Source of the DNA: Escherichia coli 042
Lineage (GTDB): Bacteria > Pseudomonadota > Gammaproteobacteria > Enterobacterales > Enterobacteriaceae
Reading direction: 5' to 3' (one strand)
DNA length: 64,000 nt
Assembly: GCF_000027125.1 (NCBI RefSeq)
Contig: NC_017626.1
Part shown: piece after piece, positions 1 to 44,558 of the stretch
Numbering within the stretch: position 1 is the first letter of the stretch
Layout of the letters: each line of letters starts with the position of its first letter
Translations under genes and position numbers: made by a program
The notes under the pieces: model-generated
What the model saw: only the letters and a program-made list of their open reading frames with translations
Told to the model about the DNA's origin: nothing
Databases searched by the model: none

Positions 1-680
<680 letters not shown>

Positions 681-34097: not shown

Positions 34098-34553
34098 GGG
34101 AGTTCTACCGCAGGGGCGGGGAACTCCAAGTGATGTCCATCATCGCATCCAGTGCGTCCGGTTTATCCCCGCTGACGCGGGGAACACACATGAATGTCGG
34201 TTCAGACCGTGTTTTTACCCGGTTTATCCCCGCTGGCGCGGGGAACACTCGTCGGCGTCTTCACCCGTCGCATAACGCTGCGGTTTATCCCCGCTGGCGC
34301 GGGGAACACTGCCAGCGTGTCGGCGTGCGTTTCGCGCTGCCCGGTTTATCCCCGCTGACGCGGGGAACACTCGATCGATAGCTGCGCGATACCTGCGGGG
34401 ATCGGTTTATCCCCGCTGACGCGGGGAACACGGCAGCTATCGAGGCAGTTATCGAGCGTCGCGCGGTTTATCCCCGCTGACGCGGGGAACACCAAAGGAC
34501 ACCGGGAGGCACCCGGCACCGCAGCGGTTTATCCCCGCTGACGCGGGGAACAC
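34098..34553 (-). CRISPR. type I-E CRISPR array: 8 repeats (the iap-proximal one degenerate), 7 spacers of 32 nt
   Basis: 29-nt repeat cggtttatccccgctg(a/g)cgcggggaacac at 34159, 34220, 34281, 34342, 34403, 34464, 34525; degenerate copy at 34098..34126; 61-nt period. Confidence 0.95.
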
Positions 34554-40511: not shown

Positions 40512-43169
40512 TCAACCAACCTTGCCAGTCAATCCTTCCATAGCCGAATACCCGCAACTTTCGTCATCGGTGACTAAAATCACGTTTGCCATCTCCGGAT
40601 CTTGCCGCTGTTCAATGCACCACTGCCTGAACGCATCCCCTTCCAGTAAAGAAAACTCATCCCGATGTTTTTTCCACCAGCTTCGACGCACTCTGACAAC
40701 GCTCATTTCCCATGCGTGAGCACCGGTGGCATAAGGCTTCACCACACCGTCAATACAGGTAGCCAGCCACAGGGAAACAGATTCCTCAGCCAGACGTGTC
40801 GACAGCTTTTCCGGAAGGTAATCGTTGATATTGGCGGCATAGCCAGGCTTGAAGTTCAGGACAAACTTTTTAGCCATTGCGCGATCGCAGTAATATTTGC
40901 CCACTTGCTCCTGCTCACTGCGGGCAAATCCTTCCGGCATTGCCACGTCTTCACCGTAGACTGATTCAATAAGAAGCCGGGCTGCGTGTGGCATCTGAAT
41001 AGCGCCTTGCTCACGCAGCACACGCTGCGTCAGCCAGATTCGCCCATGATCGGGGTAGACATATGCACTGTTACGCATGGCGCTGCCAAACCATTCGTCA
41101 CCCGGAGAGTCATCCCAGACGGGAGCCAGAATCAGCAATTCAGGAGGGGAACGCTCATCTTTTCCGTCACGCTTTAACTGACCATTAATATCGCGGATAT
41201 GCCGCTGTAATCGCCCCGCCCGCTGGATTAGCAAATCAATGTGGGCCAGGTCGGAGATCATTTCGTCCAGGTCACAATCGACGCTCTGCTCTAATACCTG
41301 AGTACAAATAAGGACTTTTCCGGCACGCTGTGAGTTACCTTCTTTACCAAAGCGTGCCAGCGTTTCCGTTTCAATTCGCTGGCGATCGCTAAAAGCAAAG
41401 CGGCTATGAAAAAGTGAAAGGCTGGAAGCGGGAATGACGCCGCGGGCAAGCAGCTGACGATGAACCTTAATAGCGTCATCGACAGAATTCCGGATCCAGG
41501 CGATGCATTTCCCCTGACTTACCGCCGATTCGATATGTGCAATACATTCTTGTTCGCTATGAAGCCAACCCACACACACGTTGCGCTCAACTTCTTTGCG
41601 CGTCGCTACCCGGTGCGAATGCAAATCGGATTTCGTGACATGCGTCAGCCATGGGTAATCATCCTTTTCAAGGAACGGAGCTTCTTGTTGGCCCTCTGCA
41701 CCACGCGCAAAGGCAGCGACGAGTTTGTCGCGCTGCTGTTGAGATAACGTAGCAGAAAGCAAAATGATACTGTTTCCGCCACGCGCCTGCCGCTCAATCA
41801 ATCCTTCAAGAATGCACGACATGTAAGCGTCACAGGCATGGATCTCATCAGCCAGCAGGATTTTTTTACTCAACCCCAGAAGCCGCAGATTATTATGTTT
41901 GAACGGCATCACCGCCATCATCGCCTGATCCAAGGTGCCGACGCCAATTTCAGCCAGCAACGCCTTCTTGTTACTGTCGGCAAACCAGGCCGCACATCCC
42001 TGGCTGAACGCTTGTTCATCCGGTTCTTCTGACCCGACTAAATCACCGGACCAGAGTGATTCATTGAAGCGGTCCATTAATGTATGGGCACTGTGTGCCA
42101 GCACCAGGCTGGGGCGGGATTCTGGCGAATAGAAAGCAAGCCAGGTTTTGACCAGCCGATCGTACATGGCATTGGCCGTTGCCATTGTTGGCAGGCCAAA
42201 AAACAAACCCTGAGCTTTCCCCGCAGCCATCAACCTGTGGACCATGATAAGCGCTGCTTCTGTTTTACCTGCGCCAGTCACATCCTCCAGAATAAATAAC
42301 TGTGGCCCAGGCTGGCTGATATCCAGATCCAGTACCTTTTGCTGTAACGGTGTCGGGTGCTCAATAAAAGGAAACAGTGTATTAATTCCGGTGAAAGGCG
42401 CGGTTTGTGCTTTTGGAGGAAAGACGGTTAAGGCGTTTTGAGCCTGAACTAAAGCCTTCTGCCAGTAATCTTTAATATCCATTGCCTGTGCAACGCGTGG
42501 AAAAAACCGCGTTGACGATCCCGTCCAGTCTGCGAGTACGACGGTTGCAGAGATATACCAGGAAAGTTGTTTTATAAGTTCAACGCCCTCGTCATCATCC
42601 CAGAATGTGGGGATCTCGATGAGCGGGAACAGTGTCTTGATTGCAAGGAGAAAATCTCGTGCGGCAGCTTTGTCTTCAGGCAGAAAATTATCCAGTTCAT
42701 CCATACGATCAGGAGGCTGACCATGATGCCCGGTAGTCATGGGCATCCACATCTCTATTACCCGTTTAAGTTTGCGGGGAGAGAGTGAAGATGAAGGAAG
42801 CAACTCTTCACATTCAATTAAATAATGATTCCACAACCAGTAGCCCAGCGTTGAATGAGAGATCTTTTCGTAATTTTTTCTTGCACTTTCCGGAACCTTG
42901 AGCTGTGGGTGCAGGTAAAGTTGCTGAAAAGAGCGGGCAAATTTTCCAGTATCGTGCCAACACAGCAACCAGGCGAAAAATTGTGCTGCCTGCTCCGTGT
43001 CAGCGATACCTAATTGACGAAAATAGTCAGCCAACCCGAAACAGTTGTTTTTGACCATTAAATAACCCGTCGCGGCTACATCCAGCGAATGCCAGCAAAG
43101 TAGATGATAGTCGTCGCCGCCCTCTTTCTCGCCACGTCGGGTTTTTCCCCAGAAATCAAAGAAAGTCAC
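40512..43169 (-). CDS. cas3: CRISPR-associated nuclease-helicase Cas3 (HD domain + SF2 helicase)
   Basis: 885 aa; N-terminal HD motifs (LCWHSLDV, HDTGK), Walker A GAGKT, DEAH-like LADEIH. Confidence 0.95.
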   Translation of the reverse strand: MTFFDFWGKTRRGEKEGGDDYHLLCWHSLDVAATGYLMVKNNCFGLADYFRQLGIADTEQAAQFFAWLLCWHDTGKFARSFQQLYLHPQLKVPESARKNYEKISHSTLGYWLWNHYLIECEELLPSSSLSPRKLKRVIEMWMPMTTGHHGQPPDRMDELDNFLPEDKAAARDFLLAIKTLFPLIEIPTFWDDDEGVELIKQLSWYISATVVLADWTGSSTRFFPRVAQAMDIKDYWQKALVQAQNALTVFPPKAQTAPFTGINTLFPFIEHPTPLQQKVLDLDISQPGPQLFILEDVTGAGKTEAALIMVHRLMAAGKAQGLFFGLPTMATANAMYDRLVKTWLAFYSPESRPSLVLAHSAHTLMDRFNESLWSGDLVGSEEPDEQAFSQGCAAWFADSNKKALLAEIGVGTLDQAMMAVMPFKHNNLRLLGLSKKILLADEIHACDAYMSCILEGLIERQARGGNSIILLSATLSQQQRDKLVAAFARGAEGQQEAPFLEKDDYPWLTHVTKSDLHSHRVATRKEVERNVCVGWLHSEQECIAHIESAVSQGKCIAWIRNSVDDAIKVHRQLLARGVIPASSLSLFHSRFAFSDRQRIETETLARFGKEGNSQRAGKVLICTQVLEQSVDCDLDEMISDLAHIDLLIQRAGRLQRHIRDINGQLKRDGKDERSPPELLILAPVWDDSPGDEWFGSAMRNSAYVYPDHGRIWLTQRVLREQGAIQMPHAARLLIESVYGEDVAMPEGFARSEQEQVGKYYCDRAMAKKFVLNFKPGYAANINDYLPEKLSTRLAEESVSLWLATCIDGVVKPYATGAHAWEMSVVRVRRSWWKKHRDEFSLLEGDAFRQWCIEQRQDPEMANVILVTDDESCGYSAMEGLTGKVG

Positions 43170-43380
43170 AATGTTTTTATCCTTCAGTAAAACTTAAAGG
43201 ATATTTACGCATATATTAAAAATTATCTGTGATATATATCGTTCAATAAAACATTTACATTATGAATAATCAAATAGTTTTCATCCGTAATATATATGAA
43301 TAATAAACATAGGCATAATATTCACATAAACAATATAAATTAAAAAAGGGTGCAGGAGACCAAACCATCACAATTCAGTA

Positions 43381-43402
43381 CGCGGGGTTTTACCCCCGCG
43401 TG
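43381..43402 (-). terminator. GC-rich hairpin immediately 3' of the hok-like ORF
   Basis: acgcgggg-tttta-ccccgcgt perfect 8-bp stem starting 6 nt after the stop codon. Confidence 0.5.
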
Positions 43403-43407
43403 GTGGC

Positions 43408-43560
43408 TACTTCTTCGATTCGTAAGCGAGAACTGCCTTAAACTCCATACCACGTTCTCTGATACTCAACTCACACAACGAGTCGCCTACCATCAGCGTG
43501 AATCCCAGTACTGTACAACACAGTACGATGATTGCCACAAGGGCATATTTTGTCAGCATG
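43408..43560 (-). CDS. hok: Hok/Gef-family type I toxin (small membrane peptide)
   Basis: 50 aa [50 protein letters not shown]; matches Hok/Gef pattern (TM helix, SLCE, AYES); GGAGG 7 nt upstream of ATG; below the 60-aa track cutoff. Confidence 0.8.
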
Positions 43561-43769
43561 TCTTGCCTCCCTGCAAAGAAGAGACTAACATTCGAATTGC
43601 TTAGGTTCGAACGCTGGCCTCAGGTTGATTGAAATATCGCCTGGGGCTTTTGTCCATCTGGAACCTCGCGAATGCTTAACGCCAGACAGCCTCAAGCACC
43701 CAACGCCATTCTATACCTGTTAATTTTCCCTGCGATGTTCACCTTTAAATGCCGGAATGCTGCTCGCAA

Positions 43770-43812
43770 AATAAAAACGCCCCCATCATTTCTGACAGAG
43801 GCGTTTAATTTA
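43770..43812 (-). terminator. probable terminator of the cysJIH operon
   Basis: aaacgcc ... ggcgttt inverted repeat followed by a T-run on the minus strand just downstream of cysH stop. Confidence 0.45.
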
Positions 43813-43823
43813 TCCGGCAATAT

Positions 43824-44558
43824 TTACCCTTCGTGTAACCCACATTCCCTTTTTAAGCCAAAGAAACGCGTTTCTTCTTCCGCCATGCCGGGTTCCCATT
43901 TACGGGTTGTATGGGTATCACCGACGGATAAATATCCTTCGTCCCATAATGGATGATATTTCAGGCCATGTTTTTGCAGATACTGATATATCGTTCGGTT
44001 ATCCCAGTCGATAATCGGCAGCACTTTAAATACGCCACGCTGAATTGCCAGCACCGGTAAATTGGCGCGACTGCCGGATTGTTCGCGGCGCAGGCCAGCA
44101 AACCACGTTTGCGCATTCAGTTCTTTCAGCGCCCGGTTCATCGGTTCGACTTTGTTGATGTCATTGTACTTTTCAATGCCTTCAACACCCTGCTCCCACA
44201 GTTTGCCGTAGCGCGCTTCCTGCCAGGCGGCGCTTTCGGTAGCGCGGTACACTTTCAGGTTGAGCTTGAGTTTGTCCGTTAACTCGTCAATAAAGCGGTA
44301 GGTTTCCGGGAACAGATAACCCGTATCGGTCAGGATCACCGGGATATCCGGGTGAATCTGATTCACCAGATGCAGGCTCACCGCCGCCTGAATGCCGAAA
44401 CTGGAAGAAAGTACATATTCACCGGGCAGATTATCCAGCGCCCAGGCAACGCGGCCTTCAGCATCCAGTTTTTCCAGTTCGGCGTTAGTTTCTGCCAGCG
44501 CCAGAATGCGATCTACCTTCGGCAGTTCGTTCAGGGCGTTTAGATCGAGTTTGGACAT
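43824..44558 (-). CDS. cysH: phosphoadenosine phosphosulfate (PAPS) reductase
   Basis: 244 aa from [10 protein letters not shown]; C-terminal ECGLH motif. Confidence 0.96.

Follow-up and report, generated by a model that had tools for sequence, protein, structure and literature searches.

The intergenic region between cas3 and cysH in Escherichia coli 042 raises the question of whether it holds an intact type I toxin-antitoxin module, as was proposed in an initial annotation made from the letters of the sequence. We addressed this question within a stretch of 64,000 nucleotides of contig NC_017626.1 (assembly GCF_000027125.1), referred to here as the window, whose first letter is position 1. 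The region is very probably an intact chromosomal module of the hok/sok type, namely the hokX (hokG)/sokX locus of E. coli. Observation supplies the peptide family, the leader family, the homology of SokX, the predicted pairing between the 5' and 3' ends of the mRNA and the intactness relative to other strains, and every element predicted by the reading as a Hok/Gef toxin with a Sok-like antisense RNA is present. The locus has been catalogued and named before and is, in that sense, ordinary.

The toxin gene sits between cas3 and cysH as proposed, and both flanking genes are confirmed on the minus strand.
43407..43559, minus strand: hokX (= hokG) toxin ORF, 50 amino acids plus stop, with ATG at 43559-43557 and stop TAG at 43409-43407
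43566..43570, minus strand: hok Shine-Dalgarno GGAGG in the sequence, 6 nt before the ATG
43824..44558, minus strand: cysH, flank
40512..43169 (PGAP-style start 43212), minus strand: cas3, flank
The 50-codon minus-strand ORF exists as described, with its coordinates shifted by one base from the 43408..43560 originally given (43559..43407), and the ribosome-binding site GGAGG that had been assigned to it is found at 43570-43566. The proposed architecture of one transmembrane helix followed by SLCE and AYES motifs is borne out by the peptide: both motifs are present, and residues 5-24 are uncharged and hydrophobic, lying between K4 and D26. The Pfam family PF01848 (HOK_GEF) matches residues 5-46 across its full model (1-42/42) with an i-Evalue of 6.3e-10, and the NCBIfam models for HokA (E=2.6e-14) and for the Hok subfamily (E=3.6e-10) also match, both below their curated equivalog and subfamily cut-offs. 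Conserved residues of Hok peptides have been listed as C-x-T, LCE and a later E (preprint, bioRxiv 10.1101/2025.08.07.668861); the family-conserved residues in HokX are C14-C15-T16, L28-C29-E30 and E39. By the HOK_GEF match (E=6.3e-10) and the leader match to RF01794 described below (E=1e-25), the assignment of this ORF to Hok/Gef is far beyond chance. An N-terminal extension of Hok was considered and rejected, as an in-frame UGA at 43622-43620 is followed by no ATG, GTG or TTG before 43559. The ORF was said to be absent from the ORF track on account of its size, and with 50 amino acids it does lie below the default minimum of 60 used in ORF listing. The lesson for annotation is that a length filter on ORF tracks will pass over genes as short as some 50 codons; hokX itself is already called by PGAP.

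The identity of the gene follows from its product and its position. The peptide is identical to RefSeq WP_000956458.1, a 'Hok/Gef family protein', and to Swiss-Prot HOKG_ECO57, 'Putative protein HokG'. An exact-sequence cluster look-up places the 50-residue HokG sequence on at least 1000 contigs, and WP_000956458.1 occurs in O157:H7, O104:H4, O2:K2:H1 and other strains. Along with the same protein, the window has the same chromosomal position, adjoining cysH on the iap/cas3 side, and the order cysH-hok-cas3 or cysH-hok-iap was seen in all fetched loci that retain the ORF. Previous work has found hok and sokX adjoining cysH in 90% of uropathogenic strains and sokX only in K-12-like strains (PMC12736100), and a locus at the same site in AIEC has been termed 'homologous to hokX in E. 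coli B' (PMC7232551).

Upstream of the toxin ORF, the minus strand carries a recognizable hok-family leader, bounded above by the terminator of cysH.
43775..43806, minus strand: intrinsic terminator of cysH, with a stem of 14 pairs and then a T-run, which bounds the hokX module on its upper side
43708..43713, minus strand: candidate -10 TAGAAT of the hokX mRNA promoter, read from the sequence
43544..43701, minus strand: leader of the hok family, matched by all of Rfam RF01794 (model positions 1-157) with 109.6 bits, where the gathering score is 59, and E=1e-25
43342..43701, minus strand: predicted full-length hokX mRNA, ~360 nt, with its 5' end at Rfam model position 1 and its 3' end at the end of the U6 run
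The roughly 260 bp upstream of the ORF had been assigned to a regulated 5' mRNA region and a Sok-like RNA. Both are present there, although the leader upstream of the ATG takes up only 142 nt (43701..43560), the rest being promoter and cysH terminator. No Rfam family other than RF01794 turned up in the 64-kb window. Although named 'sok', RF01794 models the hok-sense leader, and Sok is its complement: on the sense strands of two controls it scores 88.9 bits for hok of R100, which has been characterised by experiment, and 87.1 bits for hokE, and the match ends at the hok AUG. These controls rule out taking the Rfam match for a minus-strand RNA distinct from the hok mRNA. Rfam matches to ctRNA_p42d and Spot_42 at 43766-43866 were also discarded; they correspond to the cysH terminator and lie far below thresholds.

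The promoter of the hokX mRNA is less conspicuous than its leader. All hokX alleles share TAGAAT, and the corresponding hexamer in hokE is TAAGAT; the candidate -35 (ATCGCA, 43736-43731) is weak. A consensus promoter scan called neither the hok nor the Sok promoter, both of which fall below its threshold, and its sole match, at 43556-43528 on the minus strand, was rejected as lying inside the ORF and below shuffle expectation. The 3' end of the mRNA was placed, by inference, where the homology between cas3-flanked and iap-flanked strains stops. With this end, the hokX unit extends about 40 nt further 3' than the interval first annotated, to 43342, and takes in fbi and the U-run.

Opposite the leader, the plus strand encodes the antisense RNA.
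43599..43657, plus strand: SokX, an antisense RNA of 59 nt with 56/59 identity (95%) to its K-12 homologue sokX (b4701)
43563..43591, plus strand: Sok promoter-like site in the sequence, with -35 TTGCCT (43563-68), a 17-nt spacer and -10 TAACAT (43586-91)
A search of this strand for a Sok-like promoter and terminator had been suggested. The SokX homologue, with its hairpin and U-tail, was found; in its predicted fold (-21.3 kcal/mol) the 5' end is free, and a long hairpin with imperfect pairing leads into the tail UUUUGU. The promoter fared less well, being sub-consensus and missed by the scanner: the site, 7 nt before the SokX 5' end, agrees with consensus at 8/12 positions and hence falls under the scanner threshold. 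K-12, which has an annotated SokX, shows no difference across 43563-43591, and the spacing from SokX to the hok ATG and to the leader AUG equals that of sokE/hokE in K-12. By homology to the annotated K-12 sokX, the locus encodes a cis-antisense RNA of about 60 nt, with a promoter-like site of its own at a conserved position, as expected of a Sok. In EHEC EDL933, the Rfam feature 'sok_15/sokX' has had RNA-seq reads assigned to it.

Beyond its parts, a hok-type mRNA is recognized by the way in which its two ends fold together, and here the predictions are specific.
43688..43701, minus strand: tac-like 5' element GGGUGCUUGAGGCU, partner of 43361-43348 in both the MFE and the centroid structure predicted for the full-length mRNA
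43348..43361, minus strand: fbi-like element GGUCUCCUGCACCC, 6+6 bp with the 5' end
43362..43377, minus strand: 3' segment whose predicted partner, in MFE helices of 8 bp and 5 bp, is the Sok-target region 43608-43593
43587..43615, minus strand: Sok-target hairpin, 10-bp stem and loop CCUAAGCAA with CUAA (YUNR-type U-turn), predicted only in the 3'-truncated fold
43342..43347, minus strand: U6 run directly after fbi, conserved end of the module (sequence, allele comparison)
Folding of 43380..43800 had been suggested as a way to look for long-range tac/fbi pairing; the pairing is found, but that interval would omit fbi. The full-length fold (43701..43341) has an MFE of -126.9 kcal/mol, with z=-2.9 against shuffles. 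In its predicted helices, GGGUGC, the first six nucleotides, pairs with GCACCC (43353-48), and GAGGCU (43693-88) pairs with GGUCUC (43361-56). The hok Shine-Dalgarno and AUG lie in local helices of the same fold, with GAGG at 43569-43566 paired to 43578-43575 and AAGA at 43564-43561 paired to 43582-43579. In folds from which the last 20-40 nt have been removed, the 5' end goes into a local hairpin (43701-43692 with 43679-43670) and the Sok-target hairpin forms, the arms of which pair with 43377-43362 instead when the mRNA is full length. The loop and 5' arm of this hairpin are complementary to the 5' tail of SokX.

Allele comparison is consistent with the tac-fbi pairing. All three allelic substitutions within it preserve pairing (G-C to G-U in O157:H7; G-U to G-C and U-G to C-G in TB06052). 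When the tac-fbi duplex energy was compared with shuffles, hokX was beaten by 59/2000, hokE by 73/2000 and the validated R100 by 298/2000; the advantage of hokX over shuffles is modest, and the R100 value marks this as a test of low power. RNAalifold on 8 hokX alleles and hokE gave 5 double-change pairs, in an alignment of little divergence in which fbi of hokE sits one column out of register, and among these sequences it gave no double compensatory changes within tac-fbi.

In plasmid R1, translation of hok is coupled to that of an overlapping frame, Mok, and it is at this step that the hokX mRNA departs most from the textbook arrangement.
43553..43591, minus strand: 12-codon leader ORF from three-frame translation, its stop overlapping hok codons 2-3 (AUGCUGA)
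No canonical Mok overlapping hok was found in any of the three frames of the hokX mRNA, whereas the R100 control yields its 70-residue Mok. The leader ORF has no Shine-Dalgarno in the sequence. A Mok-like coupling role for it is plausible but unproven, and since the ORF has only 12 codons and lacks a Shine-Dalgarno, coupling is a less secure step here than in R1. More generally, the hokX/hokE branch is without a canonical Mok, and the textbook coupling step should not be assumed there.

We propose a model where a weak promoter near 43713-43708 would give rise to an mRNA of about 360 nt, running from 43701 to about 43342. In the full-length mRNA, tac (43701-43688) would be paired with fbi (43361-43348), and the Shine-Dalgarno and start codon would be held in local helices; this closure and sequestration would leave the mRNA untranslated and inaccessible to antisense RNA. 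Slow trimming from the 3' end would then drop fbi, the 5' end would refold and the hairpin at 43615-43587 would present its U-turn loop. The 59-nt SokX, transcribed from the opposite strand and, if it resembles R1 Sok, unstable, would bind the target hairpin, block ribosome entry at the leader ORF (43591-43553) and trigger cleavage of the duplex. Upon depletion of SokX, the leader ORF would be translated and the helix that sequesters the Shine-Dalgarno opened, as in the R1 system. Hok, an inner-membrane peptide of 50 amino acids, would then be made and would depolarise the membrane. For the 3' processing, the refolding, the cleavage by RNase III and the coupling through the leader ORF, it is from hok/sok of plasmid R1 that we infer the behaviour of hokX.

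The same locus might, however, be regulated unlike R1, with SokX mainly promoting decay of the processed mRNA, Hok gated by sequestration of its own GGAGG and AUG, and the 12-codon ORF incidental. The leader can be read in both directions on this point. Its AUG is without a Shine-Dalgarno, no long ORF overlaps hok, and a GAGG at 43621-43618, where the Mok Shine-Dalgarno of R1 would be, has no start codon after it, all of which would suit an incidental ORF; yet this same AUG is conserved in hokE as well as in 9/9 hokX alleles, and at both loci its distance from the Sok 5' end is exactly 8 nt. Likewise, the strong Shine-Dalgarno that hok possesses, predicted to be base-paired in the full-length fold, could be gate enough by itself, but the leader stop lies across the beginning of hok, and its only variant, G43554A, keeps both a stop (UGA to UAA) and Leu2 of Hok. 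In hokE, moreover, the AUG is in frame with hok, which suggests that it is used. We regard regulation of this other kind as unlikely, albeit a serious possibility, and favor the R1-like model with its leader ORF in a coupling role.

The 3' end of the transcript invites a further speculation. The homology between cas3-flanked and iap-flanked strains ends right after the U-run, at 43341, and thereby marks the boundary of the hokX module. No stable local terminator hairpin was found before the U6 run, the last 39 nt folding with only -3.1 kcal/mol, and a terminator scan finds the cysH terminator only. The tac-fbi helix is the only stable helix abutting the conserved U6 run, and the start of cas3 lies 130-170 nt downstream on the same strand. 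It is tempting to speculate that hokX has no terminator of its own and that the tac-fbi helix together with U6 terminates transcription, so that termination would be coupled to the inert fold and transcripts that fail to close would read into cas3. With a 12-codon ORF in place of Mok, a trait that hokE has in altered form, the hokX/hokE branch would then be a mechanistic variant of the R1 paradigm. We consider this combined proposal quite improbable.

Between the stop codon and fbi lies a feature at which the locus is interrupted in other strains.
43381..43400, minus strand: 3' GC hairpin CGCGGGG-GUAAAA-CCCCGCG (sequence, fold), also an IS186 target (GGGG-N6-CCCC)
The perfect GC hairpin reported directly 3' of the ORF is indeed there, beginning 6 nt past the stop. 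Its arms, CGCGGGG (43400-43394) and CCCCGCG (43387-43381), enclose the loop GUAAAA and form 7 perfect pairs, or 8 with A43401-U43380. GGGG-N6-CCCC has been described as the target motif of IS186 (PMC6925257). Among 5426 complete E. coli genomes, the match to the window is split within the hairpin, at 43385-43396, in about 800, and in both cases that were opened, O104:H4 2011C-3493 and S1-CAM-01-C, an element of the IS421/IS186 family is located exactly at the split. The hairpin after hok is an IS186 hot spot, which explains why an IS element is so often found just 3' of hok ORFs. As a separate observation, IS insertions at the hok hairpin border the type I-E cas operon, which in at least one strain has been lost alongside.

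Despite these insertions, the uninterrupted locus prevails in the species. The hokX ORF is present at >=95% identity in 4218 of the 5426 complete E. coli genomes (78%), in single copy and always on the chromosome, and among the matches listed the annotation reads 'Hok/Gef family protein' in 40/40 records. The end of the ORF, the hairpin and fbi are contiguous, as in the window, in 3416/5426 (63%); the intact architecture is the majority state. An evenly spaced sample of 30 rows gives estimates of about 20% of genomes for the deletion of the K-12 type and a few percent for a larger deletion. In K-12 MG1655 itself, the cas3-cysH spacer is annotated with the sRNA gene sokX (b4701), antisense to cysH and cas3, and homology to the window sets in precisely with the hok ATG: K-12 has retained the start codon together with leader and promoter and has lost the ORF from codon 2 onward.

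The word 'intact' in the initial annotation is justified by this comparison. ORF, leader, Sok region and the elements of the 5' and 3' ends are all present in the window, unlike in K-12 or O104:H4, and alignment with other strains shows the upstream regulatory elements in place where their deletion had been considered. The window copy is uninterrupted, in contrast to K-12, where the ORF is deleted, and to E. coli B and O104:H4, where an IS element lies 3' of hok. Strain 042 carries the uninterrupted form and is usable as a natural wild type for hokX/sokX.

Variation within the ORF points to selection on the peptide. Across nine alleles, the variable sites are 8 synonymous and 1 non-synonymous (C15F), and the identical protein WP_000956458.1 is encoded by 7/11 sampled alleles as well as by the window ORF, including O157:H7 at 92% intergenic identity. 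This skew toward synonymous sites, with the same protein across phylogroups, suggests that hokX is under purifying selection.

The possibilities that the gene is non-toxic on overexpression, or is not transcribed, were raised at the outset, and the literature bears on both. An identical peptide, 46_982 (plasmid LRP171), was cloned under an arabinose promoter in a series in which 42/45 constructs were toxic (2026 preprint, bioRxiv 10.1101/2025.08.07.668861), the non-toxic ones being 19_179, 60_1482 and 69_1540 only (bioRxiv 10.1101/2025.08.07.668861). As 46_982 appears neither among these nor on the list of peptides not cloned, the HokX peptide is probably toxic on induction, by exclusion. Transcription has been reported: hokG mRNA was detected in ten clinical UTI isolates, and A-to-I editing of hokG at 10-37% in all ten of them, in a 2025 study (PMC13017025), the validation primers of which match the window at 43557-43538 and 43417-43398.
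43419..43425, minus strand: TTACGAA in the sequence, an instance of the TadA motif YTACGAA spanning the Tyr46 codon, with the editable A at 43423
The YTACGAA motif was defined in earlier work (PMC12255301), and in the window it is predicted to fall in a local stem-loop with a 9-nt loop, CUUACGAAU.

These data also bear on whether hokX, although structurally intact, is inert, a silenced or decaying relic like the hok loci of K-12 that yields no toxin under natural conditions. Weak -35 elements would be in keeping with silencing, but the mRNA is detected and edited in 10/10 UTI isolates, and the identical peptide is toxic by the exclusion given above. Chromosomal hok loci are often inactivated, and at this one some 20% of genomes are without the ORF and some 15% have an interrupted hairpin; the intact form nevertheless persists in 63%, with synonymous-skewed substitutions and a protein identical across phylogroups. 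An inert relic is, in our estimation, very unlikely. That the ORF is a chance frame beside SokX as the only real gene, as its mere 50 codons and the K-12 annotation of sokX alone might suggest, has a negligible probability and is already refuted by the Pfam and NCBIfam matches, the 78% identity to HokE, the mainly synonymous drift, the PGAP annotation in thousands of genomes and the fact that K-12 is without the ORF through deletion from codon 2 onward.

We therefore return to the reading of an intact hokX/sokX module and set it beside the systems that it resembles. With hokX/sokX of E. coli as previously named, the window copy is the same gene, and nothing of substance differs. With hokB of E. 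coli, hokX shares a YTACGAA stem-loop in the mRNA that resembles tRNA-Arg2 and in which A-to-I editing makes a Tyr codon read as Cys. The codon concerned is Tyr29 in hokB and, close to the C-terminus, Tyr46 in hokX/hokG, and editing reaches 10-37% in hokG as against up to 89.6% in hokB, the highest site reported.

The hok/sok system of plasmids R1 and R100 has in common with hokX the peptide family, the leader covariance model, the 5'-3' pairing of tac and fbi, an antisense RNA of about 60 nt encoded in cis opposite the leader, and a GC hairpin that directly follows the stop codon. The peptides of R1 and hokX are nonetheless distant, falling into different 60% clusters, and R1 has a 70-codon Mok overlapping hok and a dedicated terminator after fbi, both of which hokX lacks. 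R1 is also plasmid-borne with post-segregational killing demonstrated, whereas hokX is a fixed chromosomal locus. For chromosomal hok loci, Pedersen and Gerdes reportedly noted in 1999 that post-segregational killing had not been shown.

The closest paralogue of hokX is hokE/sokE, with 78% identity between the peptides, 83% nucleotide identity between the ORFs and membership of the same 60% cluster. The leaders of the two can be aligned throughout, Sok occupies the same position, and hokE is likewise without a canonical Mok. Both have a GGGG-N6-CCCC hairpin 3' of the stop, and that of hokE carries IS186 in K-12. They differ in that hokE has an insertion of 4 nt ahead of its ATG, which brings the upstream AUG into frame with hokE, while in hokX this AUG begins a distinct 12-codon ORF. 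They differ also in that a distinct GC-rich hairpin comes after the hokE fbi (AGGCACC), while U6 comes directly after that of hokX. The paralogue of hokE/sokE, hokX/sokX belongs to the usual set of hok loci on the E. coli chromosome.

The GC hairpin that lies directly 3' of hokX has the form of a known insertion target.

43381-43400: GC hairpin, GGGG-N6-CCCC, directly 3' of the hok ORF
43385-43396: TSD region within this hairpin

GGGG-N6-CCCC is the target favoured by IS186 (PMC6925257), and elements of the IS421/IS186 family sit exactly at the hokX hairpin in O104:H4 and S1-CAM-01-C. The hairpin is split in about 800 of 4220 hokX carriers, and at K-12 hokE an IS186B lies within the counterpart hairpin. 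The preference of IS186 for the GC hairpin probably accounts for the frequency with which IS elements are found just downstream of hok ORFs.

In S1-CAM-01-C (NZ_CP145718.1, 168-1975), the IS421 in the hokX hairpin is followed immediately by a CRISPR array and iap, and all cas genes of type I-E are absent. This arrangement suggests that the cas operon was deleted via the IS, with the deletion anchored at the hok hairpin. A CRISPR array is also present in the window, built of a 29-nt repeat, CGGTTTATCCCCGCTG(A/G)CGCGGGGAACAC, in at least seven regular copies with a 61-nt period; an Rfam scan of this region returned no family at gathering score.

34100-34553: type I-E CRISPR array, between iap and cas2

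In genomes of the K-12 type, the hokX promoter is still there, as are the 142-nt leader and the ATG (2220-2412 of the K-12 locus; window 43557-43740); the stretch from the ORF through fbi, the 3' element of the mRNA, has been lost. This deletion accompanies the K-12 variant of cas3. The K-12 leader runs directly toward cas3, whose start is 92 nt off on the same strand, and the leftover hokX promoter could add to cas3 transcription there. In the window, the cas3 start region (43169-43212) contains one T more than in strain bR120 (TTTT, 43192-43189). With this T, the upstream ATG chosen by PGAP (43212) does not share the cas3 frame, and in Ecol_316, a near-identical strain, the annotation reads 'cas3 frameshifted'. 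Since a frame of 885 aa runs uninterrupted from GTG 43169, with AAGGA upstream of it, the apparent frameshift is probably an issue of start-codon annotation rather than a dead cas3.

In the HokX peptide, C15F (WP_000956460.1; codon 15, window 43516, minus strand) is the sole amino-acid polymorphism among the sampled alleles. It is carried by TB06052, O169:H41 and S1-CAM-01-C and falls at the variable position between the Cys and the Thr that are conserved in the helix. The Tyr46 codon lies within TTACGAA (43419-43425, minus strand), an exact match to the TadA motif YTACGAA, and is predicted to sit in a stem-loop whose loop is CUUACGAAU. For UTI isolates, published work gives editing levels of 10-37% for hokG (= hokX); editing at this codon would convert Tyr46 to Cys.

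In the hairpin predicted as the Sok target, the loop (43597-43605, minus strand) varies by allele group: CCUAAGCAA in the window, CCCAAACAA in K-12, D3, bR120 and O104:H4, and CGUAGCAA in O157:H7 and TB06052. Among these three loops, only CCUAAGCAA has a clean YUNR (CUAA) U-turn motif. As Sok is cis-encoded, it co-varies automatically with its target loop.

At 43766-43866 (minus strand), where the terminator hairpin of cysH lies, Rfam gives two weak matches below threshold: ctRNA_p42d at 24.9 bits (gathering score 50) and Spot_42 at 19.7 bits (gathering score 80). Both are chance likenesses to terminator stem-loops. RF01794, named 'sok antitoxin', matches as follows.

43544-43701, minus strand: RF01794 in the window
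327-503: RF01794 in comparison locus L013
454-609: RF01794 in comparison locus L014

These matches mark the hok strand rather than that of Sok: what the family represents is the leader in hok-sense orientation, beginning at the 5' end of the mRNA and reaching the hok AUG. Read counts on Rfam 'sok' features therefore measure the sense leader, sok_15/sokX in EHEC being one example of a feature counted in this way (PMC5331693).
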